Assembly: GCA_049510395.1 (NCBI GenBank)
Contig: JBEKYY010000012.1
Location: 7,530 to 71,529, forward strand
Reading direction: 5' to 3'
DNA: 64,000 nt
Source: Verrucomicrobiota bacterium
GTDB taxonomy: Bacteria > Verrucomicrobiota > Verrucomicrobiia > Limisphaerales > UBA11358
This document shows positions 1-56,836 of the stretch, piece by piece. The translations under genes and the position numbers were made by a program. Position 1 is the first letter of the stretch. Every line of letters begins with the position of its first letter. The notes under the pieces are model-generated. The model ran no database searches. It had not been told where the DNA came from and saw nothing but the letters and a program-made list of their open reading frames with translations.

Positions 1-838
1 TGAACGGGAACTTCATATACGACCACGGCTCAACCGCCTCGCTGATGTAATCGAGATATTTCGACGGGGGAACCTGGTCGTGCACAATTTCGCCGCTGGC
101 GTCGCAGAAACGCAAATTGCCGTTGTACAATTCCAGCGCGCCGTCCGGCTGGACCAGCCCCATGTAGTTGGAATCGAAATTGGCGAAGGTTTCCACCTCG
201 TCGCGGTGGGCCTTGTGGTAGGTCTTGAGCAGGTCGAGCGCAAACTTCGCGTGGCCGAACGCTTCGGGCAGGCCCTTGAGGATTTCGTCGCGTTGCGCGG
301 TGGTGAGCACCTTGTTCACGCCGCCGGGCACCGTGAAATCCGCATGAATCTTCCGGCCGGCGACGAGCTTGATGAGTTCCTGGCCGAATTTGCGCAGCCG
401 CACGCCCTTGATGGCGATGTCGGGCTGCTGCCGGATGAGGCCGACGATGTTGCGGACGGCGGGGTCGGCGTCGTAGCCGAGCAGCAGGTCGGGCGCGCTG
501 AGATGGAAGAAGCTGAGCGCGTGGGACTGGATGATCTGGCCCATGTGCATCAGTTCACGGAGCATCTTTGCCGTTTGCGGAATCTCGCGGCCAACGATGG
601 CGTCGCAGGCCTTGGCGCTGGCGAGCAGGTGGCTGACCGGGCAGATGCCGCAGGTGCGCGGGGTGATTTGCGGCATCTCGGTGAAATGCCGGCCCTCGCA
701 GAACTTTTCAAAACCGCGAAATTCCACGACGTGGAAGCGCGCGTCGTCCACCTCGCCCCGGCTGTCGAGATGGATGGTGATCTTGGCGTGGCCCTCGATG
801 CGGGTCACCGGGTTGATGGTGATGGTCTTGGTTGTCAT
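1..838 (-). CDS. hoxH: [NiFe]-hydrogenase large catalytic subunit, HoxH-like; N-terminal ~279 codons only, the rest lies beyond the window start
   Basis: Absent from the ORF track because the frame stays open to the window edge. My own minus-strand translation from the ATG at 838..836 reads [25 protein letters not shown]...[37 protein letters not shown]... It carries the RIEGH and RxCGxCxxxH N-terminal Ni-ligand motifs of [NiFe] large subunits. The start lies 1 nt after the hoxY stop (840..842). Confidence 0.85.
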
Positions 839-839
839 G

Positions 840-1457
840 TCAGTCGTACCTCAAATTCTTCTCGTTCCATTGCGGCGTGCGGCCGGCCAGCAATTCCGTC
901 AGGGCATACCAGATCACGTCGGCGTCCGGCGGGCAGCCGGGGATGTGCAGGTCCACCTTCACCACCTCCTGCAGGGGCCGCGCCTTCGGGCACAGCTTTG
1001 GCACGAGGGGATCGTTGGGGATGCAACTGATGCGGTTGCTTTCGGCCTGTTCGTAGGCGCGCGCCAGGCAGTCCTTCAACGGGAACTGGTTGCGCAGGGC
1101 CGGGATGTTGCCGGTGATGGCGCAGTCGCCGAGGGCGATAAGGACCTTGCAACGGTCGCGCAGCATCCGCAGCTCGTGTTCCTGGTCGGTGTTGTTCACG
1201 CAGCCCTCGACAATGCCGACGTCCACCTGCGGCATGTCCTTCACCTTGGTGTCCACGATGGGGCTGAACAGGATGTCAATCAGCTTCGCCAGGTCCACCA
1301 GGCGTTCGTCGAGGTCGAGGAACGACATGTGGCAGCCGGAGCAGCCGCTCAGCCACATGGTGGCGACGCGCACCCGGGCAGGCGCGGGCGCGGCGGCGGG
1401 TTTCGCCGCCGGGCGGGTGGTTTTCTTCGTTACTTTTTTACCGATGGTCTTCTTCAT
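840..1457 (-). CDS. hoxY: [NiFe]-hydrogenase small subunit, HoxY-like (short, group-3 type)
   Basis: Internal ATG of ORF 840..1763(-) at 1457 (cat at 1455..1457). Sequence: MKKTIGKK...[19 protein letters not shown]...[10 protein letters not shown]...IPGCPP. The proximal-cluster Cys pattern matches short group-3 small subunits. ATGA overlap with the upstream gene's stop. The Lys/Ala/Pro-rich 33-aa N-terminal tail is unusual; an alternative start at MWLSGC is possible. Confidence 0.85.
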
Positions 1458-3277
1458 GCAAACACACTCTCCAAAATTGCCGCGTCTTCGCGCGCCTCGC
1501 TGCTGACCGGCAGCACGGGCCGCAGGGACAACTGGCGTCCTTCTAGGTTGGTGATGGTGCCGGATTTTTCGCACCAGATGGTGGCGGGCAGCACGACCGC
1601 CGCCTTGTCGGTGAGCGCCGAGCGGTAACCGGCCTGCACCACCACGCACGGGATCTCGTCCAGCAGCCCGGGCACGTATTTCTCCTCCAGCATCCCGGCG
1701 CCGCCGTCGGGCGCGTCGCTGGCGACAATGTGCAGGAACTTCAGCGGTTTGGCGTCCAGCCACGGGCCGACGTCTTCGATGGCCTCAATGCCGGCGCCCG
1801 CCAGCGCGAGGCTGTTGGTGCTCACCGGCAGGCCGATGAGTGCTGGTTCCCGGTCGCCCGGATGGTTTTCAAAAATTTTGATGAGTCGTTCCAGCACCGT
1901 CACGCCGATCGGGGTCATCGCGTTCGGGCCATAGACGATGGCCGGCCGCTGCGCGCCTTCGAGCGTCGCCGCCACCCGATCCCAGAACTGGTGTTCCAGG
2001 CCGACCACGTTGGCGGCGATGTCGGCGTACTGATCCAAGTCACTCTTGCGGGCGTGGAAGATGAGCAGCTTCGCCCCGCGTTTGCGGACCGTGGTGCGGA
2101 TGCGGGCGGCCACGACACCGTTGTCGCGGGACGGCTGGGCGCCGATGATGATGATGGCGTCCGCGTCCTCCAGTTTCCGCATGGCGTCGGCGCTGAAGGA
2201 CGGTTCGCGGCAGAGCGCCGACTCGTTGGCGGTTACGTACATGCCAACCCGGTCAATTTTGCCGGCGAGTTTCGTGATGGTCTGCGCGGTTTCGTTGGTC
2301 ACCCGCGGGGCGACGAGCAACGCCTTCTCCGTTTTTTTAGCGTCCTTGACGGCCTTGCGGATGGCGGCGATGGCGTTGTCCCAGGTGGCCGGCTTCAGTT
2401 TGCCGTCCTTGCCGCGGAGCAGCGGTTGGGTGATGCGTTCGCGCGGTTCGGCCCACGTCTCGTACCGGCCTTTCACACAAAGATGACCGCGATTGACGGA
2501 GGAATCGGGATCGCCCCAGACATTCACGATGCGGTTTTCCTTGGTGAACACCTTGAGGCCGCAGCCGAGGGGGCATTCGGTGCAGGTGGTGAGCACCTGC
2601 TGGCAACTGGCCAGCGGGCCGCGGAAGGCCGCCGCCTTGTCGAAGAACGCGCCGGTCGGGCAGTTGGCAACGCACGCGCCGCAGGACGTGCACGTCTCGG
2701 ACTCGCTGAATTTTTTGAGCATGTCCACAACCACCCGGTTGCGAATGCCGCGGTAGGCGACGTCGAGCGTGTGTACGCCTTCAATCTCGTCGCAGGTCCG
2801 CACGCAACGCATGCACAGGATGCAGCGATTGTGGTCCAGCCCGAAATACTTTGCCGTGAGGTCCACCGGCAGGGCGGGATAGAGATACTGGTAGCGGATG
2901 CCGGTGATGCCGTGGAGGTAACCCTGATGTTGCAGGCCGCAGTCACCCTTGTTGTAGGGGCACATCGGGCAGATGTGGTTGCGTTCGCTGAACAGCAGCT
3001 CCAGTGTGGCCTTGCGCAGGCCCTGCAGGCGCGGGCTGTCGGTGATGATTTTCGAGCCGTCCATGGCCGGAGTGGTGCAGGACGGCGCCACCTTGGGGCT
3101 GCCTTCGATTTCAACGATGCACAACCGGCAGCCGCCCCACGGGGTCAGCCCCTTCAGATAGCACAGCGTCGGGATGTTGATGTCATTGGCGCGGGCGATT
3201 TCCAGGATGGTTTGTCCCGGTTCGCCGGCGCAGATCTTGCCGTTGATGGTGAGGGAAATTTTTTTGGTCGCTGTCAT
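1454..3277 (-). CDS. HoxU/NuoG-like Fe-S diaphorase subunit with a truncated C-terminal molybdopterin-oxidoreductase-like domain (607 aa)
   Basis: Start [14 protein letters not shown] at 3277. Plant-type 2Fe-2S region ([15 protein letters not shown]), His-ligated cluster region ([13 protein letters not shown]), [11 protein letters not shown] and [12 protein letters not shown] 4Fe-4S motifs. These are followed by a MopB-type N-terminal cluster ([12 protein letters not shown]...HLCVKG) and ~330 further aa. Confidence 0.85.
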
Positions 3278-3291
3278 GGTTTCGCTCCGCA

Positions 3292-6200
3292 TCAATGTAA
3301 TTCTTCTCCGCTGCCGCTGGTTTTGATGTCGCAACGCAGACAGCGGAAGCATTCTGCCCTGGCCTGCCATTCGGTGAAGGTGGGTGACACCTCGATGTTG
3401 CCGCGCCGTTGTTCGGGTGCAATGAGCCGCGCCGGGTTGCGCGGCCCGCCTTGGGACGGCGGCGGGATGGTGTGGTCGTAGTCGAACTTCGGCCACAACT
3501 CCTCGAAACGATCCAGCCCGGTCAACTGCCGGTCAATCATCTTCGCGGCCTTCTTACCGGCCCCCATCGTAGTGGAGACGTTGGTGGCGCCGGTGACATA
3601 ATCGCCGCCGGCATAAATTTTCGGGTTGCTGGTCTGCAGCGTCCACGGGTCCACCTTGAGCGATCCCCACGAGGTCGTGGCCAAACCAAGGTTTTTGGTC
3701 AACTGGCCTTCGGGTTTCTCACCGATGGCCTTGATGATCGTGTCGCAGGGGACCACGTACGTGTCCTTGGTCACGACCGGGGTGCGGCGACCGCGGGCGT
3801 CGTGTTTGCCGGGCACGGTCTTGGCCACCTCCAGCCCGGTGATTTTGCCGGTCTGGCCGGTGATGACGCGCAACGGCGCGGCCATGGTGATAAGATTGAC
3901 ACCCTCTTCGAGCGCCTGTTCGGTTTCGTCGGGAATTGCCGGCATTTCCCCGCGCGACCGCCGATAGACGATCGTCACGTCAGCGCCCAGCCGTTTGGCG
4001 GTGCGCGCCGCGTCAATCGCCGAATTGCCGCCACCGATGACGGCGACCTTCGGGCCGATGGCCGGTTTTTTGCCGAACGCAGTCTCGTTGAGGAACGACA
4101 GCGAGGACAGCAGGCCTTTCGCGTCGTCGCCCGGAACCCCGAGCGCCTGTTCCTCCCAGGTGCCGAGCGCGAGGAAGACGGCGTCATTGTCCTTGGCGAG
4201 CTTGTCGAGTTGCAGCGTTTTGCCGAGTTCGGCCTTGAACTTGAACTGGAAGCCCGCACTGCGGATGAAGGCGAGTTCCTTGTCCACGATTTTCTTGGGC
4301 AGGCGGTATTCGGGCAGCGCGTAGCGGAGCAGGCCGCCGGCGTTGGGCGCCCGGTCATAGACGGTGACCTTGTGGCCGAGCAGGGCGAGGTAGAACGCCG
4401 CGCTCAAACCCGCCGGGCCGGCGCCGACCACGGCAATTTTTTTGCCGGTGGGGGACTGTTTGCGTTTGAGAATGCGCTGCAACACCCGTTTGGCGCCGCC
4501 GCTTTCATACATCACGTCGCCGATGTACCGGTGCGTTTCGCGCATGTTGACGGAGGCATCCACGCCAGCGCGCCGGCAACGGAGTTCGCACGGGCGCTGG
4601 CACACGCGGCCCGTTGTCGAGGGCAGCGGGTTGTCCATCACCACCTGTTCAAAGGCGTCGTCAATCCGGTCCTCCTTCAGCAACTGGAGGAAGCCGGGGA
4701 TGTTCATGTTCAACGGGCAGGTGTTTTCGCACGGCGAAAGTTGCAGGTTGCCGCACAGACCGGCCACGCAACGGTGTTCGCGGATGTGCTGCTCGTATTC
4801 GTGGCGGAAATATTTCAACGTCGTCAGCACCGGATTCGGCGCGGTCTGGCCGAGACCGCAGAGGCTGGCGTCGCGGACAACGGAGCACAGGTCCTCGAGC
4901 CGGTCGAGGTCGGCCAGCTCGCCTTCGCCACGGCAGATTTTCTCCAGCAGATTGAGCATCTGCTTGGTGCCGACGCGGCACGGCGGGCATTTGCCGCAGG
5001 ATTCGTCGCAGCAAAATTCGAGGAAGAACCGGGCGACGTCCACCATGCAGGAATCCTCGTCCATGATGACCATGCCGCCGGAACCCATGATGGAGCCGAG
5101 TTTCTGGAGCGTTTCGTACTCGACCGGCGTGTCGAGGTGTTGCGCGGGGATGACGCCGCCGGAAGGGCCGCCGGTCTGGACGGCCTTGAATTGTTTGCCA
5201 TCAGGGATGCCGCCGCCGATTTCGTAAATGATGTCGCGCAGCGGTGTGCCAAACGGAACTTCAACCAGGCCGGTATTCCTGATTTTGCCGGCGAGCGCGA
5301 AGACCTTGGTGCCCTTGGTCTTCTCGGTGCCGAACGTGGCATACCACGCGGCGCCTTTGCGGATGATGGGCGGTACGGCGGCCCAGGTTTCGACGTTATT
5401 GATGTTGGTGGGCTTGCCCCAAAGACCGCGCTGGGCCGGGAAGGGCGGCCGCGGCATCGGCTGGCCGCGACGGCCTTCGATGGAACGCATGAGCGCGGTT
5501 TCCTCGCCGCACACGAACGCGCCGGCGCCGATGCGGAGTTCGAGGTCGAAATCGAATCCCTTCTCAAAAAGGTTTTTGCCGAGCAGCTCATTTTTGTAGG
5601 CCTGTTCGATGGCGATCTGGAGACGTTTGATGGCGAGCGGATACTCGGCGCGGATGTAGATGAACCCGCGGTTGGCGCCCATCGCGTAACCGCCGATGGC
5701 CATGCCTTCCATGACGCGGTGGGGATCGCCTTCAAGGACGGCGCGGTTCATGAACGCGCCGGGATCGCCCTCGTCGGCGTTACAGATGATATACTTGGGC
5801 TTGTCCGGCACCCGGGCCATCAACTCCCACTTCACCCCGGTGGGGAAACCCGCGCCGCCGCGACCGCGCAGGCCGCTGGCCTTGATTTCGGCGATGACCT
5901 GTTCGGGCGTCATCCCGGTGAGGATTTTGCCAAGGGCGGCGTAGCCGTCGCGGGCGATGTATTCCTCGATTTTCTCGGCGTCAATCAGGCCGCAGTTTTC
6001 GAGGATGATCTTAGTCTGTTTGGCCAGGAACGCGAAGTCGCGCTGGGTGGTGATGACATTGTCGCCGATTTCTTCCCTCGGCAGCAGCCGTTGGCAGGGC
6101 CGGCCCTTGACAAAATGTTCTTCCACCAGTTCCGGCACGTCCAGCGCCGTGACGCGCTGATAGAAGGTGCCGTCGGGGTGGACGAGGATGACCGGGCCAA

Positions 6201-6354
6201 GGTCGCACGGCCCCATGCAGCCGGTCACGATCATCCGGACTTCCTTGTCCAGCCGATGTTTTTTCAATTCGGACGCGAGGGCGTCCTGAACGGCGTGGCA
6301 ACCTGAACTCAGGCAGCCGGCGCCGCCGCAAACCAATACGTGGGAGCGGATCAT
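3292..6354 (-). CDS. Fusion protein (1020 aa): thioredoxin-like 2Fe-2S domain + NuoF/HoxF NAD(H)/FMN core + GltD/NfnB-like NAD(P)H:FAD oxidoreductase
   Basis: Start MIRSHVLVCGGAGCLSSGC at 6354 (aa 146 of ORF 3292..6789). NuoF motifs: GLRGRGGAGFPTG, CNADEGDPGAF, ESCGKCPPCRVGT. From about aa 528: GltD-type Cys clusters (CVAGLCGNLQLSPCENTCP, GRVCQRPCELRC), two Rossmann motifs (VVGAGPAGLSAA, VIGGGNSAIDAA) and YAGGDYVTG. Confidence 0.85.
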   Translation of the reverse strand: MIRSHVLVCGGAGCLSSGCHAVQDALASELKKHRLDKEVRMIVTGCMGPCDLGPVILVHPDGTFYQRVTALDVPELVEEHFVKGRPCQRLLPREEIGDNVITTQRDFAFLAKQTKIILENCGLIDAEKIEEYIARDGYAALGKILTGMTPEQVIAEIKASGLRGRGGAGFPTGVKWELMARVPDKPKYIICNADEGDPGAFMNRAVLEGDPHRVMEGMAIGGYAMGANRGFIYIRAEYPLAIKRLQIAIEQAYKNELLGKNLFEKGFDFDLELRIGAGAFVCGEETALMRSIEGRRGQPMPRPPFPAQRGLWGKPTNINNVETWAAVPPIIRKGAAWYATFGTEKTKGTKVFALAGKIRNTGLVEVPFGTPLRDIIYEIGGGIPDGKQFKAVQTGGPSGGVIPAQHLDTPVEYETLQKLGSIMGSGGMVIMDEDSCMVDVARFFLEFCCDESCGKCPPCRVGTKQMLNLLEKICRGEGELADLDRLEDLCSVVRDASLCGLGQTAPNPVLTTLKYFRHEYEQHIREHRCVAGLCGNLQLSPCENTCPLNMNIPGFLQLLKEDRIDDAFEQVVMDNPLPSTTGRVCQRPCELRCRRAGVDASVNMRETHRYIGDVMYESGGAKRVLQRILKRKQSPTGKKIAVVGAGPAGLSAAFYLALLGHKVTVYDRAPNAGGLLRYALPEYRLPKKIVDKELAFIRSAGFQFKFKAELGKTLQLDKLAKDNDAVFLALGTWEEQALGVPGDDAKGLLSSLSFLNETAFGKKPAIGPKVAVIGGGNSAIDAARTAKRLGADVTIVYRRSRGEMPAIPDETEQALEEGVNLITMAAPLRVITGQTGKITGLEVAKTVPGKHDARGRRTPVVTKDTYVVPCDTIIKAIGEKPEGQLTKNLGLATTSWGSLKVDPWTLQTSNPKIYAGGDYVTGATNVSTTMGAGKKAAKMIDRQLTGLDRFEELWPKFDYDHTIPPPSQGGPRNPARLIAPEQRRGNIEVSPTFTEWQARAECFRCLRCDIKTSGSGEELH

Positions 6355-6359
6355 GCGGG

Positions 6360-6731
6360 TTACTCCGTCTTCTTTTGCCTGCCGACGGCAAGATTGTCCA
6401 CCTTCCGGCCCTTTTGCAGATGCTCGGCGACGATTTTTTTCGCCTTCTCGGTGTCGAGCTTGGCGTAGGTGGTCTTTTCGCCACCGGCTTCCTCGACGAG
6501 GACGACCGGCTCGATGTCTTCCAGCCCGTGCTCGCCGGTGACATGGACTTCCACGTCGTCGAGGCCGCGCTTTTCGATTTCGTCGAGCATGGTCTTCATG
6601 ACTTCGCGGGCACCGGAGGCGATGCCGCTGGTGCCCATGCTGACGACGACGCGGTATTTTTTGCCGCCTTCGCGCAGGGCGATCTGTTTTTGAGCTTTTT
6701 CCTTGAGTTGTTTCAATTGTTCCAGGTTCAT
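6360..6731 (-). CDS. Small thioredoxin-like ferredoxin-fold protein lacking all cluster cysteines
   Basis: 123-aa ORF with no Cys. VVVSMGTSGIASGA...VHVTGEHGLEDIEPVV aligns by eye to the VLVCGGAGCLSSGC...IVTGCMGPCDLGPVI domain at the N-terminus of the next gene. 4-nt overlap with the upstream gene. Confidence 0.7.
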   Translation of the reverse strand: MNLEQLKQLKEKAQKQIALREGGKKYRVVVSMGTSGIASGAREVMKTMLDEIEKRGLDDVEVHVTGEHGLEDIEPVVLVEEAGGEKTTYAKLDTEKAKKIVAEHLQKGRKVDNLAVGRQKKTE

Positions 6732-7210
6732 AAATTGACTTCTCCTTTCTTGGCCGGCTCCTGTGAGTCGAAGAAAAACCTCTGCTCATCGGAGCGGTAA
6801 TTCAATTGCACGTCCATTTTTCTGTCCGTCGCGCACAACGCCAGGATTGTTGTGTTCAGGTCGCCCAGCGGCGGGCGGTCAATGTGACTGAGCCGCATGG
6901 AGGCGGTGACCGACGTGCCCCGGCCGGGGGCGGACCGAACGTGAAAATGTCCGCCGCACATCTCGGAGGTCTGGCGCAGAAAGGCCAGGCCGAGGCCGAC
7001 GGGTTTGCGCCGTTTGTTTTTGCTGCTCCAGCGTTGCGCCAGCACGCGCTTCAGCATGGCCGCGTCCATCCCGCAACCGTCGTCCCGCACGCGCAGCACG
7101 AGCCGGTCGTGCCGGCGGCTCTCCAGGATGCTGATCTGCACTTTTTTGGCGTTGGCGGAGATCGAATTCATGGCAATGTCCAGAATGTGCTGTGACAGCT
7201 CTTCAAACAT
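6728..7210 (-). CDS. Small histidine-kinase-like ATPase (HATPase_c) protein
   Basis: 160 aa. N-box-like ILDIAMNSISA, G1/G2-like RVRDDGCGMD and GLGLAFL motifs. Embedded in the hydrogenase operon and overlaps the hoxE 3' end by 8 nt. Confidence 0.75.
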   Translation of the reverse strand: MFEELSQHILDIAMNSISANAKKVQISILESRRHDRLVLRVRDDGCGMDAAMLKRVLAQRWSSKNKRRKPVGLGLAFLRQTSEMCGGHFHVRSAPGRGTSVTASMRLSHIDRPPLGDLNTTILALCATDRKMDVQLNYRSDEQRFFFDSQEPAKKGEVNL

Positions 7211-7736
7211 ATTTTTTCAGGTCCGTCCTGCAAAGCTGCTGGATCTTGTCCGCCGTCAGCTTGCCATAGACGTCGTCGCCCACCGACATGGCCGGTGCCA
7301 GCGCGCAGGCGCCGATGCACCGGGCGGTGGACAGGCTGAACCGGCCGTCCTTGGTGGTTTCGCCCTCCTTCACGCCGAGCTGCTTTTCCATGGCGGCCAG
7401 GATCTGGTCCGAACCGCGCACGTGGCAGCCGGTGCCGCGGCAGACCATGATCTGGTGCTTGCCGCGGGGGACCAGGGTGAACAAATGGTAGAAGGTGACG
7501 ACGCCGTACACGTGTGAGAGGGGCAGCTTCAACGCGGTGGCGACGTAGCGGAGCACATCGGCGCTGAGATAACCGAACATCTGCTGCGCCGCGTGCAACA
7601 CCTGGATCAACGCTGTCGGTTCATGGTTGTAGCTTTCAATCGTGTGGTCGAGGTCCGCAAAACGCGGGTCGCCGCTCGGATGGGTGGTTTCCATGGCCGC
7701 GAGGCGCGCGGTCTCGCTGATGACTTTTGGGTTCAT
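7203..7736 (-). CDS. hoxE: NuoE/HoxE-like 2Fe-2S diaphorase subunit
   Basis: Start MNPKVISE at 7736 (aa 66 of ORF 7203..7931). NuoE Cys pattern VCRGTGCHV ... ARCIGACALAP. ATGA overlap with the upstream gene. Confidence 0.85.
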   Translation of the reverse strand: MNPKVISETARLAAMETTHPSGDPRFADLDHTIESYNHEPTALIQVLHAAQQMFGYLSADVLRYVATALKLPLSHVYGVVTFYHLFTLVPRGKHQIMVCRGTGCHVRGSDQILAAMEKQLGVKEGETTKDGRFSLSTARCIGACALAPAMSVGDDVYGKLTADKIQQLCRTDLKKYV

Positions 7737-8080
7737 CGCAATCCTGCCTCCCAAAGTTTGCCGGCCGCCTCGTAAGCCGCCAGTTTCGTGGACAACAACA
7801 CAATGCCTTCTGCGTCCGCCTCGGCCACGACTCCCGGATCGGGTTTGCGGCCGCAGACGAACAGCACCGCGCCGATGTCCTTGGTGGTGGCGCAGGAGAT
7901 GACATTGCGATGGGTCTGGATGGTGATCCACAACATGCTGTGGCTGGCGTGCGCCAGCACGTCGCTGAGCAGGTCGCTGATGTAGCAGCCCGTGAGGTCC
8001 GCCTCCGCCCGGTTGGTCAGCGGCTCGGCCTTCAACGCGGCAAGCACCGACGACAGTTTCTTCGTTTTTTCAGTTTTCAT
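7733..8080 (-). CDS. DRTGG-domain-like small protein
   Basis: 115 aa. The CYISDLLSDVLAHA...LWITIQTHRNVISCA...EGIVLLST pattern is typical of small DRTGG-domain proteins found in hydrogenase loci. The assignment is by motif memory, not HMM. Confidence 0.65.
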   Translation of the reverse strand: MKTEKTKKLSSVLAALKAEPLTNRAEADLTGCYISDLLSDVLAHASHSMLWITIQTHRNVISCATTKDIGAVLFVCGRKPDPGVVAEADAEGIVLLSTKLAAYEAAGKLWEAGLR

Positions 8081-9234
8081 ATTGGTTCTTCCGGCTCGGG
8101 CAGCGGGGCCGCCTGGCTCAACCGCACTTCGGAATGCAGGCGCGTGCCGACGCTCATCTCGGAATGGATTTCAAACTTGTCGGAACATTTCTTGATGTTG
8201 GGCAGGCCCATGCCGGCGCCGAAACCCAGTTCGCGCGCCAGCGGCCCGGCGGTGGACCAGCCCTCCTGCATGGCCAGCTCCACGTTTTCGATTCCCGGCC
8301 CGCGGTCCACGGCTTCAACGACCACTTTCCCGGGCGAAATGGCAACCGAAAGGTCCCCGCCGATGGAATGGATGATCATGTTCATCTCGGCCTCGTAGGC
8401 GATGATCGCCGCGCGCCGCTGGATGTCCGGGTCCACGCCGCGCGCCCGCAGAATCTGGCGCATGCGCTGCGAAATCTTGCCCGCGCTGTCGTAATCGCCC
8501 GACTTCACCTCCGTTTGCACGACCAGCGATTGGGCGTGTTCCGGGTCGCTCGTCTGGCTGGAGAACAACGCGGCCTCACGGGCAGCGGCTTCCTCGGCGC
8601 GTTTCTCCAGTTGCTGCATCAGGCAGGCGGTGATGTCGCCGCGGGTGATGACCCCCACGAGTTCGCCAGCGCTGTTCAACACGGGAAAACGGCCGAAGCC
8701 GTGCCGGTCGAACTCTGCCACCGCGCGCACGAGCGAAAAATGGTCGCGCAGCGTGACGATGTTCCGTGTCATCCACCGCTCCGCCGGGTCGTTGACGTGG
8801 CCCTGATCGAGGGCGTTGATGATGTCTTCGATGCTGACCAGCCCCACCGGGACGCTGTTTTGGAGGATGGGCACGCCCGAGATGCGGTGGGTCTTCATCA
8901 AATGCTGGATGGTGCGCAACGAATCATCCGGCGCACCGGTCACGGGGGGCCGGGTCATCGCGTCACGCACACGCAATTCGTAAATCAGGACCTGGGCAAC
9001 GGAAACTTTGAGCGGTTTGCCCGCGGTCACGCCGGTTTCAGTCGAGGACCCTTCAGACATGGTTACGGCGATCGTGCTGTCACCCAGCTTGATCGCCACC
9101 GCATTATGCGCCACTGCTGTGCTGGCGGTCAATTCCGGACCAGGCTCCGGAATCCGGGAACGCCTGCCGGCGGCGGCGTCCGGAAGAACAGCTGCCAGCC
9201 GGATGCCTTTGTCTTTTTGGGTGGTGGTGATCAT
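8077..9234 (-). CDS. CBS-pair domain protein fused to an anti-sigma-type serine kinase / HATPase domain
   Basis: 385 aa. Two CBS-like segments (VRDAMTRPPV...GVPIL; MTRNIVTL...RFPVLN..GELVGVITRGD). C-terminal HATPase_c_2-like region (EAEMNMIIHS...VDRGPGIENV...GFGAGMGLPNI). First gene of the operon. Confidence 0.8.
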   Translation of the reverse strand: MITTTQKDKGIRLAAVLPDAAAGRRSRIPEPGPELTASTAVAHNAVAIKLGDSTIAVTMSEGSSTETGVTAGKPLKVSVAQVLIYELRVRDAMTRPPVTGAPDDSLRTIQHLMKTHRISGVPILQNSVPVGLVSIEDIINALDQGHVNDPAERWMTRNIVTLRDHFSLVRAVAEFDRHGFGRFPVLNSAGELVGVITRGDITACLMQQLEKRAEEAAAREAALFSSQTSDPEHAQSLVVQTEVKSGDYDSAGKISQRMRQILRARGVDPDIQRRAAIIAYEAEMNMIIHSIGGDLSVAISPGKVVVEAVDRGPGIENVELAMQEGWSTAGPLARELGFGAGMGLPNIKKCSDKFEIHSEMSVGTRLHSEVRLSQAAPLPEPEEPI

Positions 9235-9569
9235 GACAATCAGGCGTATAACCGACGTCCATTAGATTTTCGTGGGGGCGGGCGCGAAAGGCTCTGCAAA
9301 AATTGGCAAACTATCACCGTGCTTTGTACGGCGAAGAATTGTTCAGCAGTTCTTTCACGCTCCACTGTCTGCGAACACCGCATTTTTTGAAATTTTGCGC
9401 CGGTTCATTTCAGTCATCCGGTGACGTTGTGATACAAAATTGATGGCGGAACCGGCATTTCATTCATCCGGGTTCCAGGGTTTGTCCCGCGCATCGCCGG
9501 CGTTTGCGCCAGCCTGCGGGCATGAGTGTTGAACGGGGTTTGGGTGTGATTATAGCAAGGCCATTTCAC

Positions 9570-9598
9570 TTGACGCACACTTGGGGTTTGCTTAATTT
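9570..9598 (+). promoter_or_regulatory. Candidate sigma70-type promoter (TTGACG-17 nt-TAATTT) in the divergent hox/araC intergenic region
   Basis: TTGACG at 9570..9575, a 17-nt spacer, TAATTT at 9593..9598. If real, the regulator probably starts downstream of the GTG at 9605. Pattern match only. Confidence 0.25.
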
Positions 9599-9604
9599 GT
9601 TGCC

Positions 9605-10669
9605 GTGCCAACAACTATTGCAAAGAGGGCCAAAGGGGTGCCAGCAACTCGGCCCCACCCCTCGGAGGGTTGTTTGATTAAACCGTGCTTCCATCAAAAC
9701 GTTCCCGGCACTGGCGCCGCGAAAAAAGTTTCTTCCGCCAGGGCCAGGGCCTCAGTCGTCATGATGGGCGGCAACAGCAGCAGCACCGGCAATAACAACC
9801 GCGCTCTGATCAAAGCCATCTCGGATTCGAAGGTTTATCAGGAGTATGAGCGCGCATTCAACGTGTTGACGGGTTTGCCGGTGTCATTGCAGCCGGTGGA
9901 AACCTGGCAGTTGCCGCATCACGGCAAGCGGAACGAAAATCCTTTTTGCGCGCTGGTGTCGCAGAAAAGCCACGCGTGCGCCGCTTGTTTGCAGATGTGG
10001 GAGCAGCTTTGCGAAAAAGCCGCCCATGAACCGAGGACGATCACCTGTCAGGCCGGACTCCTCGACACCGCCGTGCCGGTGCGGTTGGGCGACCGGCTCA
10101 TCGGTTATCTGCAAACCGGACAGCTTTTCGGCCGGAAACCGAGTCGGCGTCAGTTTGACCGGGCCGCCAAATTGGTGGCGGGATGGGGTGTGGAAGTGGA
10201 TCGGGAGGTGCTCCGGAAGGCCTACTATTCCACAAAAGTGGTGACCGCCCGACAGCACGAATCCGTCGTCAAAATGCTGATGATTTTTGCGCAGCATCTG
10301 GCGATGCTCGGCAACCAGATTTTCATCCAGCAAAAGAACGCCGAGCCGCCAATCATCAAGCGCGCCAAGGAATACATTTACGAACACCACACCGAGCAAC
10401 TTTCGCTCGCCCGGGCGGCCAGAGCCGTCAATATGAGCACATTTTACTTTTGCAAAATGTTCAAGAAGGTCACGGGCATCAATTTCACCGACTACCTTTC
10501 GCGCGTTCGCATTGAGAAGGCGAAGAATCTGTTGCTGAATCCGAACCTGCGCGTGAGCGAAATCGCGTTTGAGGTCGGGTTCCAGTCGCTCACGCATTTC
10601 AACCGGGTCTTCAAAAAGCTGCTGGGCCAGTCGCCAACGGAATACCGCGCGCAATTGCTGGCGCGGTAA
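9605..10669 (+). CDS. AraC-family transcriptional regulator with an N-terminal PocR-like sensory domain
   Basis: PocR-like Cys-rich region (FCALVSQKSHACAACLQMW...ITCQAGLLDTAVPV). C-terminal HTH_AraC (LSLARAARAVNMSTFYFCKMFKKVTG...FQSLTHFNRVFKKLLGQSPTEYR). The 5' end is uncertain (GTG at 9605, or the internal MMGGN). Confidence 0.8.
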   Translation: MPTTIAKRAKGVPATRPHPSEGCLIKPCFHQNVPGTGAAKKVSSARARASVVMMGGNSSSTGNNNRALIKAISDSKVYQEYERAFNVLTGLPVSLQPVETWQLPHHGKRNENPFCALVSQKSHACAACLQMWEQLCEKAAHEPRTITCQAGLLDTAVPVRLGDRLIGYLQTGQLFGRKPSRRQFDRAAKLVAGWGVEVDREVLRKAYYSTKVVTARQHESVVKMLMIFAQHLAMLGNQIFIQQKNAEPPIIKRAKEYIYEHHTEQLSLARAARAVNMSTFYFCKMFKKVTGINFTDYLSRVRIEKAKNLLLNPNLRVSEIAFEVGFQSLTHFNRVFKKLLGQSPTEYRAQLLAR

Positions 10670-10670
10670 A

Positions 10671-10835
10671 TGGGAGCAACTCGAGACTATTGCTGACTCC
10701 CTCGCCCCGCCCAGCGGGGAGAGGGCTGGGGCGAGGGGATTTGAATTTAAACGCCCCACCTCACCCCGCCCCTCTCCCCCAACTCCGTTGGCGGAGAGGG
10801 AGAAAATGGCGATGGTTTCTTCATCAGTTTGCTCA
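10671..10835 (-). repeat. MITE-like intergenic repeat, family M1, degenerate copy
   Basis: GGGAGCAACTCGAGAC...GACTCCCTCGCCCCGCCCAGCGGGGAGAGGGCTGGGGCGAGGGGATTT matches the reverse complement of 44165..44238. It begins 2 nt after the araC-family stop codon. Confidence 0.55.
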
Positions 10836-11024
10836 TTGCCGTAACTCGTCAGTTCCTTCCGGTCGCTCCGAATCTCCTTTCCTTTCCGGCAGTTTCTGGC
10901 AATTTGTTTTCGTGCTCCCAGCGCTGAAGTGCCGCGCCTGCAAAATTGGTAAAGTCTTCAACAAGGTTTGGTGAGCAGAGTGCCCGGGAAGGGCGGATTT
11001 TGTTTTTTTGCGCGGTCAATATTT

Positions 11025-13133
11025 ATGCTTGAGACGCTTTTATATCCCAAGGCCATCGCGGTGATCGGTGCTTCCCGCCACCCGGACAAGGTGGGTTACG
11101 CAGTGCTGGCCAATCTCATCAACAACGGCTTCAAAGGGCCGATTGTTCCGGTCAATCCTGATGCGGATGAAATTCTCGGCCTTAAATGTTACAAATCAAT
11201 CGGCGAGTACAAGGATCCCATAGACCTCAGCATCATCATGGTGGGGGCCAAATACGTGAAAGATGCCCTCCAGAGTTCGATTAAAGCGGGCGCAAAATCG
11301 GTCATTGTCATCACAGCCGGTTTTCGCGAAGTCAGCGCGGCGGGCGCGAAGGCGGAACAGGAACTCGTCGAAATCTGCCGCGCTGCCGGCGTGCGGATGG
11401 TCGGGCCGAACTGCCTCGGCGTGCTCAACACGGACCATCACATGAACGCCACGTTCGCGCCGTCCGTGCCGCCGCCCGGAAAAATTTCCGTCATCTCCCA
11501 GTCCGGCGCGCTCTGCGTGGCCATCCTCGACTGGGCGGCGGAACAGAAGCTCGGCCTCGGCAAGGTCATCAGCTTCGGCAACAAGGCGGACCTCAACGAA
11601 GTGGATTTCATCCAGACGCTCGCGGAAGACAAGGAAACCAAAGTCATCGCCGGTTATCTGGAAAGCATCAAGGAAGGCGACAAGTTCCTGCGCATTGCGG
11701 AACAGGCCGCCGGCATCAAGCCGGTCGTGATTCTGAAGGTTGGCATCACTTCGGCGGGCGCCAAAGCCGCTTCGTCCCACACCGGCAGCCTGGCCGGTGC
11801 CGACATGGCTTACGGCGCGGCATTCAAGCGTTCGGGTGTCATCCGCGCGGAAAATTTCGAGGCGCTGTTCGATTACGCCACAGCCTTTGCCATGCAGCCG
11901 CTCCCGAATGGAGAGCGCGTGGCCGTCATCACCAACGCCGGCGGCCCGGGCATCATGGCGGCGGACGCTGCGGAATCGTCGGGCTTGAAAATGGTTTCGC
12001 CCGGCAAGGAAAGCGACGCGAAACTGCGCGCTTTCATGCCGGCGGCGGGGGCGTTCGGCAACCCGATTGACGTCATCGGCGACGCCGATCCCGACCGCTA
12101 TGTGAAAGCGTTCGAAGTAATGCAGGATGACGAAACGATTGACGCCATCGTGGTCGTGGTCACACCGCAGAACATGACCAGGCCGCTGGAGCTGGCGGAG
12201 AAACTCGGCGCGGCCCACAAGGGCAAAAAGCCGATGCTGGCGGTGTTCATGGGCGGCACGGAAGTGGTGGCGGCGAAGGAAAAGTTGATGGCTTTGGGCA
12301 TTCCGAATTATACGTCGCCCGACCGCGCCGTCACCGCGCTGCGGGCGATGTGCGATTACGCGGCCTGGAAACGCCGGCCGGCGCGCATGGTCACGCGTTT
12401 CCCGGTCAATCGCCGGCGCGTGGACCGCATCATCAATGTGCAGGAGCGCAGCGGCATAACGCAGATCGGTGAAGTCGAGGCGAAGGAAATCCTGCGCGCC
12501 TACGATTTCAACATCCTCGGCGGCCAGCTGGCCCAGACCGGCGACGAGGCCGTGGAAATTGCCGAACGCATCGGCTACCCGGTCGTGTTGAAAATTTCAT
12601 CGCCCGACATCATTCACAAATCCGATTTCGGCGGTGTTCGCATCAATCTCGCCAACGCCGAGCAGGTGCGCGACGCCTTCGATTTGATGATCCTGCGCAT
12701 CCAGAAGCGCGCGCCCAACGCGCATCTCCGCGGCGCTTATGTGGAAAAAATGGGGCAGCGTGGCCGGGAAGTGATCCTGGGCATGACCCGCGACCCGCAA
12801 TTCGGGCCGATGCTGATGTTCGGTCTGGGCGGTATTTTTGTGGAAGTGATGAAGGACGTGACCTTCCACCTCGCGCCGATTACGGCGGAGGAAGCGATGC
12901 AGATGCTCAAAGGCACGCGTTCCTACGCTCTGTTGCAGGGGGCGCGCGGCCAGGCGCCGGTGGACTTGGAGGCGATTGCCGGTGCGCTGCAGCGCATCAG
13001 CCAGCTCGTCACGGATTATCCGCAGATTATGGAACTGGACATCAACCCGTTCATCGTTGGCCCGGTTGGCGTTCAAGCTTACGTGGCCGATGCGCGCATG
13101 ACCCTTTCAACCGTGGGCAAAGCACATGAGTAA
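11025..13133 (+). CDS. Acetyl-CoA synthetase (ADP-forming) / acetate--CoA ligase family protein (CoA-binding + ligase-CoA + ATP-grasp domains)
   Basis: Start MLETLLYPKAIAVIGASRHPDKVGY at 11025. Motifs: MVGPNCLGVLN, SQSGAL, SSHTGSLAG (phospho-His loop). C-terminal ATP-grasp region (YPVVLKISSPDIIHKSDFGGV). Confidence 0.85.
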   Translation: MLETLLYPKAIAVIGASRHPDKVGYAVLANLINNGFKGPIVPVNPDADEILGLKCYKSIGEYKDPIDLSIIMVGAKYVKDALQSSIKAGAKSVIVITAGFREVSAAGAKAEQELVEICRAAGVRMVGPNCLGVLNTDHHMNATFAPSVPPPGKISVISQSGALCVAILDWAAEQKLGLGKVISFGNKADLNEVDFIQTLAEDKETKVIAGYLESIKEGDKFLRIAEQAAGIKPVVILKVGITSAGAKAASSHTGSLAGADMAYGAAFKRSGVIRAENFEALFDYATAFAMQPLPNGERVAVITNAGGPGIMAADAAESSGLKMVSPGKESDAKLRAFMPAAGAFGNPIDVIGDADPDRYVKAFEVMQDDETIDAIVVVVTPQNMTRPLELAEKLGAAHKGKKPMLAVFMGGTEVVAAKEKLMALGIPNYTSPDRAVTALRAMCDYAAWKRRPARMVTRFPVNRRRVDRIINVQERSGITQIGEVEAKEILRAYDFNILGGQLAQTGDEAVEIAERIGYPVVLKISSPDIIHKSDFGGVRINLANAEQVRDAFDLMILRIQKRAPNAHLRGAYVEKMGQRGREVILGMTRDPQFGPMLMFGLGGIFVEVMKDVTFHLAPITAEEAMQMLKGTRSYALLQGARGQAPVDLEAIAGALQRISQLVTDYPQIMELDINPFIVGPVGVQAYVADARMTLSTVGKAHE

Positions 13134-15000
13134 GACCATCACCTACGATCCCAACTGGCAGGAGACTTACAAGTTGCAGGTCCTCACGGCTGCCGAGGCG
13201 GTAAAAAAAATCCGGCCCGGCCAGCGCGTGTTCATCGGCACCGGCACGGGCGAACCGCTGGAGCTGGTCAGCGCGTTGAGCAAGCGCGCCTACGAATTGC
13301 CGGACACCGAAATTGTCCATCTGCTCACTTTCGGCGACGCGCCGTACGCGCACAAGGAACTGGCGCAATACTTCCGTGTAAACAGTTTCTTCATTGCCGA
13401 GAACGTGCGCGACATCATCCAGGAAGGCCTGGGCGACTACACGCCCATCCACCTGTCGGACATTCCGCGCCTGTTTGACTCCGGCCAACTCCCGCTCGAC
13501 GTGGCCCTCATCCACGTCACGCCGCCGGATCGGTACGGCATGTGCAGTCTGGGCGTGTCGGTGGATATTGTGAAAAGCGCCACGGAAAATGCCTCGCTCG
13601 TCATCGCGCAGGTGAACCCGAACATGCCGCGGACGCATGGCAACTGCTGCATCCACGCCCATGACATTGACGTGCTGGTGCCGTCGCAGGCGGCGATCCT
13701 CGAAGTGCCGCCGGCTGAAATCACCGAGACGACCCGGCAGATCGCCGAATACATCGCCGCGCTCGTGGAAGACGGTTCCACCATCGAGTTCGGCATCGGG
13801 CGCATTCCGCAGGCGCTGCTCGGCTTCCTCAAGGACAAGAAAGACCTCGGCGTTCACACGGAGATGGTCACCGACAACATTATTGAATTGATCGAGTCGG
13901 GCGCCATCAACGGCGCGCGCAAGACGACGGACCACGGCAAAATCGTCGCCAGCTTCGCCATCGGCACGCGGCGGATTTACGATTACATTGACAACAATCC
14001 GCTCTTTTCCTTCCAGCCGACGGAGTATGTCAACGACCCGTCCGTCATCCGCCAGCAATACAAGATGGTCGCGGTCAATACCGCGCTGCAGATAGACCTT
14101 ACCGGCCAGGTATGCGCCGATTCCATCGGCTCGAAGTTTTTCTCCGGCGTTGGCGGGCAGGTGGATTTCAACCGCGGCGCCGCCAAGTCGCGCAGCGGCA
14201 AGCCCGTTATCGCGCTGCCTTCAACGGCCCGTGGCGGCACCATCTCGCGCATCGTGACGCACCTCAGCGAGGGGGCCGGTGTGGTGACGACCCGCGCGGG
14301 CGTGCATTACGTCGTGACCGAATACGGCGTGGCGTATCTGCACGGCAAAAGCATTCAGGAACGCGCCCTGGCGCTCATCAGCATCGCCCACCCGAAATTC
14401 CGCGCCGACCTGTTGCGCGACGCCATCAATGCGAAATATCTTTCCACCGAAATGGCCGACCTGGAAGGCAAGATTCTCGTCGGGCCCAAGGAACTGCGCA
14501 CCACCTATTTGCTCAATGACGGCACGCAACTCAACTTCCGCCCGATTCATCCGACCGACGAACCGCGGATGCGCGACCTGTTCTACAAACTGTCGGAGGC
14601 GACGATTTATTACCGGTTCATGAGCCATTCCAAGCGCGTGTCGCGGCAGCAGATTCAGGACTTCGTTTATATTGACCATCGCAACGACGTGACCATCGTC
14701 GGCACGCTGCCCGAGGCGTATGGCGAAGAGATCATCGCGGTGGGCAGCTATTATCTCGACCCGAAGACGAACCTGGCGGAAGTGGCATTCGTGGTGAGCG
14801 ACCAGTGGCAGAACCACGGCATCGGCACCTTCCTCTTGAAGCATTTGATGCGCATCGCCCGCCGCAACGGCATCCGCGGGTTCACCGCCGAAGTCCTTAC
14901 TGAAAACAAGCCGATGCAGGCGGTCATCAACAAATCGAACTATAAAATCCAGAGCAAGCTCACCGGCAACGTTTACAGCTACGAGATGGATTTCGAGTAA
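13126..15000 (+). CDS. Acetyl-CoA hydrolase/transferase family domain fused to a C-terminal GNAT acetyltransferase domain
   Basis: N-terminal ~430 aa resemble 4-hydroxybutyrate/acetate CoA-transferases (VFIGTGTGEP..., AQVNPNMPRTHG, EFGIGRIPQA, GGQVDF). The C-terminus carries the GNAT motif QNHGIGTFLLKHL. 8-nt overlap with the upstream ACD gene. Confidence 0.85.
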   Translation: MSKTITYDPNWQETYKLQVLTAAEAVKKIRPGQRVFIGTGTGEPLELVSALSKRAYELPDTEIVHLLTFGDAPYAHKELAQYFRVNSFFIAENVRDIIQEGLGDYTPIHLSDIPRLFDSGQLPLDVALIHVTPPDRYGMCSLGVSVDIVKSATENASLVIAQVNPNMPRTHGNCCIHAHDIDVLVPSQAAILEVPPAEITETTRQIAEYIAALVEDGSTIEFGIGRIPQALLGFLKDKKDLGVHTEMVTDNIIELIESGAINGARKTTDHGKIVASFAIGTRRIYDYIDNNPLFSFQPTEYVNDPSVIRQQYKMVAVNTALQIDLTGQVCADSIGSKFFSGVGGQVDFNRGAAKSRSGKPVIALPSTARGGTISRIVTHLSEGAGVVTTRAGVHYVVTEYGVAYLHGKSIQERALALISIAHPKFRADLLRDAINAKYLSTEMADLEGKILVGPKELRTTYLLNDGTQLNFRPIHPTDEPRMRDLFYKLSEATIYYRFMSHSKRVSRQQIQDFVYIDHRNDVTIVGTLPEAYGEEIIAVGSYYLDPKTNLAEVAFVVSDQWQNHGIGTFLLKHLMRIARRNGIRGFTAEVLTENKPMQAVINKSNYKIQSKLTGNVYSYEMDFE

Positions 15001-24992: not shown

Positions 24993-25185
24993 GGAATTCT
25001 TTGACAAACCATACGGTAATCGACGGATCTCCCTCTCCGCCGCGAAGCGGGGGAGAGGGTCGCCCGTCCTCCGTAGCAGTACTGCGGAGGGTGGAGGGAG
25101 GGGTGATGCTGATTTTCAAAACTCCCCTCTCCGGTCGCTTCGCGACACCCTCTCCCCGCTTGGGCGGGGCGAGGGAACAATTCCT
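24993..25185 (+). repeat. MITE-like repeat family M1, copy upstream of acs
   Basis: CTCCCTCTCCGCCGCGAAGCGGGGGAGAGGG hairpin + CGTCCTCCGTAGCAGTACTGCGGAGGGTGGAG hairpin + CCCTCTCCCCGCTTGGGCGGGGCGAGGG hairpin. Same module order as 44037..44238. It inflates ORF 25001..27202 at its 5' end. Confidence 0.55.
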
Positions 25186-25222
25186 GAAATTTAGACAACA
25201 TCAAACAACCAAGAAACCTATC

Positions 25223-48099: not shown

Positions 48100-48102
48100 A
48101 AC

Positions 48103-56595: not shown

Positions 56596-56836
56596 GGCTT
56601 CGCTTCCTCAACCCATCGCGTGCGCCGCGACGATTTGTTTCACCGGCGTTCCGTCACATCAATTAGTCATCCAAATAGCAATAACTATGGATTGACAGTC
56701 TTCATAATTTGTGAGTGAATGCAATTGTTGTGAAAAGTTCGCAGAAAACTGGCCGACGCTGCGGCACAGAAGGAGCGTCGTCGTCAAAAAGCAATTTCCT
56801 GTCAGTAATGGGGCACTGTTCAGAAAAGGCAAAAAT

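Follow-up and report, generated by a model that had tools for sequence, protein, structure and literature searches.

The hydrogenase operon

The window analyzed here is a 64,000-nucleotide (64-kb) stretch of DNA from a peat Verrucomicrobiota bacterium. Nine densely packed minus-strand genes span bp 1..9234 at its left end (Table 1), and among them are the genes for the five core subunits of a putative multimeric [NiFe] hydrogenase, here called hydC, hydB, hydA, hydS and hydL. Our main subject is the 1020 amino acid (aa) product of hydB, in which a NuoF-like flavoprotein is joined to an NfnL-like module with predicted flavin adenine dinucleotide (FAD) and NADPH motifs. From the first gene of the operon to the last, neighboring genes overlap by 4, 4, 8 and 4 nt, are separated by a 5-nt gap in front of hydB, overlap by 1 nt (alternatively, a 14-nt gap) and 4 nt, and are separated by 1 nt in front of hydL; these coordinates confirm the gene order and junctions given in an original prediction that had been made from the DNA letters alone.

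Table 1 Genes of the hydrogenase operon and the parts of its fused HydB subunit
Feature	Position in window	Strand	Evidence
CBS-pair + HATPase_c_2 (anti-sigma-kinase-like) protein, 385 aa; opens the cluster	8077..9234	-	Pfam CBS, E 1.3e-24; HATPase_c_2 at cut-off
DRTGG-like small protein, 115 aa	7733..8080	-	Weak Pfam DRTGG match, E 0.0035, below cut-off; syntenic in relatives
hydC (BfuC/NuoE-like), 177 aa, predicted [2Fe-2S] cluster C1	7203..7736	-	Pfam 2Fe-2S_thioredx, E 2.7e-53
Stand-alone HATPase_c protein, 160 aa	6728..7210	-	Pfam HATPase_c, E 2.4e-17
Cys-less 123-aa paralog of the HydB N-terminal thioredoxin-like domain	6360..6731	-	33-36% identity to HydB N-terminus (tblastn)
hydB-nfnL fusion, 1020 aa	3292..6354	-	Pfam and PDB matches; reading frame unbroken
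HydB aa 1-95, thioredoxin-like domain, B5 [2Fe-2S] site Cys9, 14, 46, 50	6070..6354	-	Pfam, aa 4-79
HydB aa 96-537, NuoF-type FMN/NAD(H) core, SLBB, B1, Zn/B2 site	4744..6069	-	Alignment to 7t2r_B
HydB aa 538-1020, NfnA/StnC-type NfnL-like module	3292..4743	-	PDB matches and Foldseek
hydA (BfuA, NuoG-like), 612 aa	1454..3292 (alternative start 3277)	-	Pfam; PDB 7t2r_A
hydS, [NiFe] small subunit, 205 aa, one [4Fe-4S]	840..1457	-	Pfam Oxidored_q6, E 1.5e-30
hydL, [NiFe] large subunit, first 279 codons (gene cut by window edge)	1..838	-	PDB 7t2r_D; N-terminal Ni-Fe ligand motif

A [NiFe] hydrogenase of the BfuABC family

HydA, HydB, HydS and HydL all have as their best match in the PDB the NiFe-HydABCSL enzyme of Acetomicrobium mobile (7T2R), with E-values of 5e-102 for HydA (7t2r_A), 7e-100 for HydL (7t2r_D) and 4e-54 for HydS (7t2r_E). 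The remaining core subunit, HydC, is closest to its counterpart in bifurcating FeFe-HydABC; its seven top PDB matches, the first of which is Thermoanaerobacter kivui HydC (E 6e-45), are without exception C subunits of Bfu-family complexes, and the majority of these complexes have been shown to bifurcate. The features that mark membership of the Bfu family are present in nearly complete form: a BfuC with cluster C1 (Cys99, 104, 140 and 144 of HydC), a BfuB with a flavin mononucleotide (FMN)/NAD(H) site, cluster B1, a His/Cys3 site and a B5 domain, and a type 3 BfuA (clusters A1–A5) accompanied by separate NiFe subunits. The feature that was not found is the C-terminal ferredoxin-like domain of BfuB with its clusters B3 and B4 (two CX2CX2CX3CP motifs). 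The window copy of HydL is partial, and its C-terminal ligands were therefore seen in the ortholog at relative locus L003, which is 477 aa long, shares 96% identity with the portion that the window contains and carries the C-terminal motif DPCLSCATH. Together these comparisons establish the predicted product of the operon as a cytoplasmic multimeric [NiFe] hydrogenase of the BfuABC family, with A. mobile NiFe-HydABCSL as its closest solved relative.

The original prediction had called this enzyme a Hox-type hydrogenase and had treated its extended NuoG-like subunit as a peculiarity, and both points need correction. Membership in the strict Hox-type class (group 3d) was considered and rejected: the NuoG-like subunit is 612 aa long with a MopB remnant, HydB carries Bfu sites, and the Hydrogenophilus Hox enzyme 5XF9 ranks second for HydL and HydS. 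Moreover, the full-length L003 HydL ortholog has no match to Pfam HoxH (PF27537), a model that the genuine Hox-type loci L082, L084 and L085 do match. The long NuoG-like protein is the ordinary BfuA/HydA of a type 3 Bfu enzyme. It contains the Pfam domains Fer2_4, NADH-G_4Fe-4S_3, 4Fe-4S dicluster, Molybdop_Fe4S4 and a partial Molybdopterin, and the NCBIfam NuoG model covers it over its full length (E 2e-88); its motifs predict cluster A1 [2Fe-2S], a His-ligated A2, an A3/A4 dicluster, A5 (Molybdop_Fe4S4) and a cofactor-less MopB remnant. The single [4Fe-4S] cluster of HydS should be held by Cys39, 42, 112 and 175.

The Bfu core in the N-terminal half of HydB

Pfam places six domains along the 1020-aa protein, namely 2Fe-2S_thioredx (aa 4–79), Complex1_51K (aa 157–328; E 1.5e-46), SLBB (aa 352–401), NADH_4Fe-4S (aa 439–523; E 1.9e-34), Fer4_20 (aa 527–618; E 5e-16) and Pyr_redox_2 (aa 639–927; E 3e-36). 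This map agrees with the three parts that had been read from the sequence at the outset, a thioredoxin-like 2Fe-2S domain, a NuoF core and a GltD/NfnB-like module. Matches of this strength reflect homology and could hardly arise by chance. HydB aa 2–536 aligns with 7t2r_B residues 4–538 without a gap (E 3.8e-239, ∼68% identity), which together with the Pfam match at aa 4–79 also bears out the earlier remark that the N-terminus resembles HydB/BfuB.

Conservation was examined in an alignment of 111 fused proteins, the window protein and 110 homologs. The B1 [4Fe-4S] ligands Cys453, 456, 459 and 499 are invariant in it (the GLRGRGGAGFP motif is present as well), as are all four ligands of the Bfu-specific His/Cys3 Zn (B2) site, Cys436, His523, Cys529 and Cys534, which pair with C438, H525, C531 and C536 of A. 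mobile HydB; the roles of the B1 and B2/Zn ligands in BfuB have been described (PMC8880783, PMC12018979). The Zn-site histidine is reported to be conserved in BfuB and absent in non-bifurcating homologs (Schut et al.). Cys474, noted with the Zn/B2 site, is Cys or Thr among the 111 proteins and so matches the pattern reported for the Bfu family. In the B5 site Cys46 and Cys50 are invariant, and Cys9 and Cys14 are present in 98 of the 111 proteins. A200 and M202 correspond to A202 and M204 of A. mobile; A. mobile F182, also reported as Bfu-specific, has no unambiguous place in the PDB numbering and was not used. By these predicted ligands HydB is shown to retain the full Bfu bifurcating core (B5 site, FMN/NAD(H) site, B1 and the His/Cys3 Zn site), and HydC to retain the mobile C1 domain.

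An NfnL-like module in place of the ferredoxin-like domain

In solved Bfu enzymes the C-terminal ferredoxin-like domain of HydB, which holds B3 and B4, receives the low-potential electron from the mobile cluster C1 and reduces ferredoxin, and ferredoxin has been seen bound between this domain and BfuC (PMC8880783, PMC12018979). The alignment of the window's HydB to that of A. mobile ends just past Cys534, the last Zn (B2) ligand, and after aa 537 a Pfam and motif check finds no Fer4-type dicluster domain and no CX2CX2CX3C motif. What follows, from residue 540, is a match to NfnA, and the NfnL-like module starts eight residues past the last Zn-site Cys. The module matches residues 102–567 of Caldicellulosiruptor saccharolyticus NfnA (9bov_A) with an E-value of 4.9e-102, and likewise Thermococcus sibiricus NfnA (9n5u_A), Sporomusa ovata StnC (8oh5_C) and Pyrococcus furiosus NfnI-L (5jca_L, E 3e-85). 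The match reaches the extreme C-terminus, where RCLRC (Cys1005, Cys1008) pairs with RCLEC of NfnA. Between these ends lie a predicted FAD Rossmann motif (GAGPAG, aa 644–649) and a predicted NADPH motif (GGGNSA...YRR, aa 774–799).

We infer that the distal [4Fe-4S] cluster of the module would be held by Cys542, 593, 1005 and 1008 and the proximal one by Cys546, 585 and 589 together with His608. All seven cysteines and the YRR motif are invariant in the 111 fused proteins. Position 608, which is Lys in 59 of them and His in 52, aligns with Lys170 of NfnA/StnC, which serves cluster A7 as a non-Cys ligand and is important for function; in NfnL this position is Glu. An NfnL-type CX2CX6CX3C reading, in which Cys529 and Cys534 would be ligands of the distal cluster, was set aside; these two residues align with the Zn/B2 ligands of all BfuB proteins, and the invariant C-terminal RCLRC appears to supply the two missing ligands, as it does in NfnA/StnC.

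An AlphaFold2 monomer model of the 1020-aa protein has a mean predicted local distance difference test score (pLDDT) of 88.9 and a predicted TM-score (pTM) of 0.87, with pLDDT values of 85–90 at the junction and about 90 at the C-terminal Cys motif, which fits a rigid, packed NfnL-like module. When the model was compared with solved structures by Foldseek, the C-terminal half superposed on 5jca_L with a root mean square deviation of 1.5 Å over 424 columns, and the N-terminal half gave target-normalized TM-scores of 0.84–0.96 to BfuB chains; no solved chain found by Foldseek spans both halves. Thus Pfam, PDB matches and Foldseek all uphold the GltD/NfnB-like module that had been placed at bp 3520..4773 (equivalent to aa 528–945), and its FAD and NADPH motifs, taken with the FMN/NAD(H) core, support the accompanying idea of two nicotinamide sites. 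That the module was simply added to a NuoF protein does not stand: the B3/B4 ferredoxin-like domain is absent, and the alignments show a module of the permuted NfnA/StnC type, with two predicted [4Fe-4S] clusters, FAD and an NADPH motif, swapped in at its place. We regard the fused HydB-NfnL architecture itself as practically certain.

Distribution of the fused subunit and probable exchange of its C-terminal cassette

When 5.8 billion proteins were searched, more than 110 fused proteins of full length (about 1000–1060 aa) were recovered, which are 51–91% identical and mostly annotated only as NuoF. Their hosts are Verrucomicrobiota, Acidobacteriota, Bacillota, Chloroflexota, WS2 and other groups. 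The search of 50%-identity representatives was exhaustive, and about a dozen distinct full-length fused clusters occur among the best 150 matches considered. The window's closest loci (94–96%) are in metagenome-assembled genomes (MAGs) of peat and bog Verrucomicrobiota/Limisphaerales from SPRUCE and Stordalen-type samples; the entire nine-gene cluster is syntenic in such MAGs, and the 1020-aa reading frame is collinear with its relatives at 91–96% identity. A sequencing or assembly error that fused two genes, which the original prediction had named as a possible undoing, can be rejected given the 110 full-length homologs (51–91% identity) with the same architecture and ligands; frameshifted copies occur only in some MAGs (L020, L023 and L038). 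A ∼300-nt insertion suggested by 3356-nt matches was likewise rejected, as the upstream gene for the 123-aa paralog had been joined to the HydB match.

The fused subunit accompanies more than one kind of hydrogenase. It occurs with NiFe HydA-S-L in Verrucomicrobiota, in Armatimonadetes (L035) and at locus L084, and with [FeFe] HydA in Candidatus Fermentithermobacillus (L080/L081) and at L083. The last locus (L083:4284-11880) has a window-like order of CBS-HATPase, DRTGG, HydC, HATPase, the 123-aa protein and a fused HydB (60% identity), followed by [FeFe] HydA. At L082 (bp 7461-13897) the fused subunit lies in a true Hox-type cluster with a short HoxU, so that NuoF-type subunits outside the Bfu family carry the NADPH module as well. 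Two further loci (L085:4860-15125 and L034:8863-18613) have two tandem NuoE/NuoF-like pairs upstream of HydA-HydS-HydL; one pair consists of a fused BfuB-NfnL and a BfuC, and the other contains a plain NuoF-like protein without the C-terminal domain. One hydrogenase may be served by two flavoprotein modules in these cases.

Within Verrucomicrobiota the C-terminal part of HydB varies at one junction. In two NiFe-HydABCSL loci (L029:5153-7030 and L030:10001-11880) an N-terminal half that is 75–77% identical to the window's is followed, from this junction on, by the canonical B3/B4 domain, whose first Cys in L029 stands ∼12 residues past the Zn-site Cys. In another Verrucomicrobiota MAG (L027:10328-11972) the N-terminal half is 83% identical and the protein ends a few residues past the Zn-site CX4C with neither C-terminal domain, and hydA begins about 30–55 nt after this shortened hydB; it may represent a tail-less form that occurs naturally, or else a deletion or a pseudogene. 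In a neighbor-joining tree of the N-terminal half, which is crude in being midpoint-rooted and without support values, the ferredoxin-domain-type and tail-less variants nest within the fused Verrucomicrobiota clade, and the two C-terminal cassettes therefore look interchangeable. Identities of the two halves to the window protein are also discordant (96% and 76% for the N- and C-terminal halves of homolog P0003, 81% and 87% for those of P0005), an indication that recombination has taken place between core and NfnL module in Verrucomicrobiota. Taken together, the C-terminal variants at one junction, the nesting in the tree and the discordant half identities point to cassette exchange at a fixed junction.

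Possible electron flow and energetics

HydS and HydL are predicted to activate H2, and the Fe-S clusters of HydA to wire the electrons to HydB and HydC. The distal cluster of the module would stand in for B3, so that the low-potential branch would run from C1 to the distal [4Fe-4S], the proximal [4Fe-4S], FAD and finally NADP(H). The enzyme would then couple H2/H+ to NAD(H) at FMN plus NADP(H) at FAD, with the net reaction 2 H2 + NAD+ + NADP+ ↔ NADH + NADPH + 2 H+; for a peat fermenter that lives at low H2, confurcation would be the more probable direction, NADH + NADPH + 2 H+ → 2 H2 + NAD+ + NADP+. From the ligand and domain assignments above, we lean toward NADP(H) being the low-potential partner, which would give H2/NAD(H)/NADP(H) coupling. 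The more specific proposal, that the fused class is a ferredoxin-independent NADH/NADPH-confurcating (or H2-driven NAD+ and NADP+ co-reducing) hydrogenase, is put forward tentatively. In a more extreme version of the confurcation reading, the NfnL-type FAD may be a second bifurcating flavin in the same polypeptide; the Arg that has been discussed in this respect for NfnB and StnC (PEYRLPK) is conserved in all of these proteins, StnC included.

The physiological potential of NADPH is about −380 mV. That of NADH is given as about −280 mV (PMC9304861). The mean of the two potentials, about −330 mV, should permit H2 evolution up to roughly 150 Pa. By the same reckoning NADH alone should permit about 3 Pa and NADH with ferredoxin about 0.1 bar; 2–40 Pa is reported for a non-bifurcating HydAB, and the ∼3 Pa for NADH alone is near the low end of that span. 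H2 pressures up to the level estimated for the NADH/NADPH pair would suit a peat fermenter.

Several points weigh against NADP(H) having taken the place of ferredoxin. Pyruvate:ferredoxin oxidoreductase (PFOR) is encoded in the same 64-kb window (bp 32212..35832), so that the organism produces reduced ferredoxin and has to dispose of it, an argument for some reactivity of the enzyme toward ferredoxin. The site of ferredoxin in NfnSL is the distal [4Fe-4S] of the subunit homologous to the module, and by analogy the module could still dock ferredoxin. NAD+ and NADP+ share one standard potential, so that the drive for coupling them rests on cellular ratios only. The first two of these points also speak for an enzyme of four substrates, in which ferredoxin-dependent bifurcation persists with ferredoxin docking at the distal [4Fe-4S] of the module and NADP(H) is an extra entry or exit; one complex would then be both a hydrogenase and an Nfn-type transhydrogenase and would balance the ferredoxin, NADH, NADPH and H2 pools. 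The PFOR would supply its reduced ferredoxin, the clusters of NfnL, a homolog of the module, form a path to ferredoxin, and the distal cluster would sit at the place of B3 beside HydC, where T. sibiricus NfnABC binds ferredoxin; a bifunctional formate dehydrogenase/hydrogenase complex is, moreover, already known in the Bfu family. However, the ferredoxin-like domain, which is half of the mapped ferredoxin site, is gone, and in StnC/NfnA, the closest relatives of the module, the module is an NADPH entry only and does not bind ferredoxin. We consider the four-substrate enzyme the main alternative, less probable than NADP(H) at the end of the low-potential branch but to be taken seriously.

The enzyme might also use NADH at FMN and NADPH at FAD independently, as a non-bifurcating NAD(P)H-linked hydrogenase with a wider cofactor range and no energetic coupling. 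Loss of B3/B4 does resemble the state of non-bifurcating NuoF-type subunits, L027 keeps the operon with neither the ferredoxin domain nor the module, and the fused subunit is found in the Hox-type cluster with a short HoxU (L082). This is nonetheless improbable, since the Bfu-specific features (the B5 domain, His/Cys3 site, A200/M202 pair and C1-bearing HydC) are retained and invariant, and such features are missing from non-bifurcating homologs (Schut et al.). Still less credence can be given to a flavin module that serves another acceptor, either in sulfur or polysulfide reduction (SudA/NsoC-type) or by feeding a partner as GltD feeds GltB. GltD-like modules do serve many partners, and the StnC homolog NsoC has been described as an NADPH-dependent sulfur oxidoreductase; however, the operon and its syntenic loci contain no partner gene (gltB, pyrK/nfnS), the NADPH-type YRR motif is invariant, and the module is covalently joined to the hydrogenase flavoprotein in at least four operon types. 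In particular, no gene for NfnS (a PyrK-like FAD/[2Fe-2S] protein) is present in the operon or the syntenic loci, and there is no gltB in the cluster, where the NCBIfam GltD-type models score below their cut-offs.

Ferredoxin-independent coupling of H2 to NAD(H) and NADP(H), if true, has consequences beyond this genome. The fused class contradicts a stated invariant of the Bfu family: the BfuBC core has been called "absolutely conserved" in all members and described as reacting with NAD(H) and ferredoxin (Schut et al.), and here the ferredoxin-reducing domain is swapped and the other bifurcation-specific features are kept. In that census BfuB proteins were picked by an InterPro architecture that included a ferredoxin-type 4Fe-4S domain, and metagenomes were excluded; the fused class, which does not have the required domain, would therefore have been missed. 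In full-text literature searches and in the key Bfu, Stn, Nfn and HydB papers we found no description of a BfuB-NfnL fusion, although absence there is not proof, and no biochemical characterization of this exact fusion, which the original prediction had named as a possible refutation; to our knowledge the class, which is spread over several phyla and is not unique to the window genome, is uncharacterized. Should NADP(H) replace ferredoxin, the Bfu mechanism would drive a larger set of reactions, this one being of a new type, and fermenters that live at low H2 would have a means of discharging both of their pyridine-nucleotide pools as H2. The N-terminal halves that are 75–77% identical and carry the ferredoxin-type domain would then make a natural cassette swap for probing low-potential gating, and inferences about H2 metabolism from peat and sediment metagenomes, in which these genes are now annotated simply as NuoF, would shift.

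Accessory genes and the rest of the window

The 385-aa CBS and HATPase_c_2 protein is probably regulatory, and its gene travels with the hydrogenase genes in relative loci L001–L020 and in many HydABC loci. The L083 ortholog of the 115-aa protein is annotated as DRTGG, and the gene for the 160-aa HATPase_c protein keeps an equivalent place in HydABC operons from other phyla. All three of these genes (bp 6728..9234 of the window, minus strand) accompany Bfu hydrogenase operons across phyla, which suggests that they form a redox- or nucleotide-sensing regulatory module. At L080 (bp 4312-6093) a sensory-type [FeFe]-hydrogenase-like protein fused to a HATPase domain is encoded two genes upstream of hydC. 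The 123-aa paralog of the HydB N-terminus has no Cys in its translation and no Pfam or NCBIfam match; Ser, Glu and other residues stand at the HydB Cys positions, and it has the same position in HydABC-type operons of many phyla.

Residues 1–33 of HydS are a low-complexity Lys/Ala/Pro-rich extension (∼30 aa) that is unaligned in relatives and in 7t2r_E, and the real start could be further downstream, for example at the GTG at bp 1373. Directly after the L003 hydL lies a 147-aa open reading frame with no Pfam match that, by its position and sequence, is taken to be a maturation endopeptidase. Over bp 1..10000, scans for promoters and terminators gave counts at chance level, and the one terminator-like site on the operon strand (minus 197..182) lies inside hydL.

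An AraC-type regulator with a PocR sensor adjoins the operon and is divergent from it (within bp 9605..15000, plus strand). Nearby genes (within bp 9605..15000, plus strand; 25001..27202; and 32212..35832, plus strand) encode an ADP-forming acetyl-CoA synthetase, an acetyl-CoA hydrolase/transferase-GNAT fusion, an AMP-forming acetyl-CoA synthetase and the 1206-aa PFOR, and together they look like a fermentative pyruvate/acetate module. At L003 the genes for the AraC regulator and the acetyl-CoA synthetase come after hydL and are oriented as it is, and the neighborhood is therefore conserved but rearranged. Farther to the right, genes for a NotI-family restriction endonuclease and a D12-class N6-adenine DNA methyltransferase lie side by side (bp 47107..48987, minus strand) and are likely a type II restriction-modification system. 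Three BspA-type leucine-rich-repeat proteins are encoded on the plus strand at bp 29467..31629 (720 aa), 56711..58525 (604 aa) and 58577..62725 (1382 aa).

Comparison with known systems

The group 3d HoxEFUYH enzymes (Hydrogenophilus thermoluteolus 5XF9) are, like the window enzyme, soluble NuoEFG-linked NiFe hydrogenases, and NCBIfam detects HoxE-like and HoxU-like segments in the window proteins; they differ in that HoxU is short (about 240 aa) and HoxF is without the B2–B5 sites. An analogous move is seen in ANME-1 HdrA paralogs (PMC9012536), where an NfnB-like NADPH module lies in the ferredoxin domain of a bifurcating flavoprotein and NADPH is the proposed carrier. There the module has been inserted into an unrelated host protein (FAD-based bifurcation) and does not replace a C-terminal domain, and the paralogs are uncharacterized.

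NfnSL (NfnAB/NfnI, 5JCA) shares with the module the two [4Fe-4S] clusters, the FAD, the NADPH motif and the conserved Arg of PEYRLPK. In contrast to NfnSL, the window enzyme has no NfnS partner, its non-Cys ligand is predicted to be His/Lys rather than Glu, and the cluster motif is permuted. StnC is a closer relative of the module than NfnSL and is reported to have lost FAD bifurcation. The Nfn-Bfu/Stn enzymes to which it belongs (NfnABC 9BOV and 9N5U, StnABC 8OH5) have the same permuted NfnL-like module, in which PCxxxCP comes first and RCLxC follows the FAD domains; they likewise have a non-Cys ligand at the Lys170 position and combine the module with a BfuBC core. However, their module is an insertion in BfuA that passes mid-potential electrons on toward B1-FMN-C1, and their BfuB keeps B3/B4 and reduces ferredoxin, whereas in the window enzyme the module forms the C-terminal part of BfuB, HydA contains none, and the NiFe hydrogenase is the third site. 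The window clade has His608 where Nfn-Bfu/Stn have Lys.

The type 3 Bfu enzyme A. mobile NiFe-HydABCSL (7T2R/7T30) is alike in its subunit set (A, B, C, S and L), in the collinear HydB core with B1, B5 and the His/Cys3 site, in the A1–A5 motifs of HydA and in its single-cluster small subunit. The A. mobile HydA is longer (692 aa compared with 612 aa, the match stopping at about aa 412), and the window operon has the extra genes for CBS, DRTGG, HATPase and Cys-less thioredoxin-like proteins. The major difference is in HydB, which in A. mobile ends in the B3/B4 domain that reduces ferredoxin and in the window enzyme carries at that place the ∼480-aa NfnL-like FAD/NADPH module.

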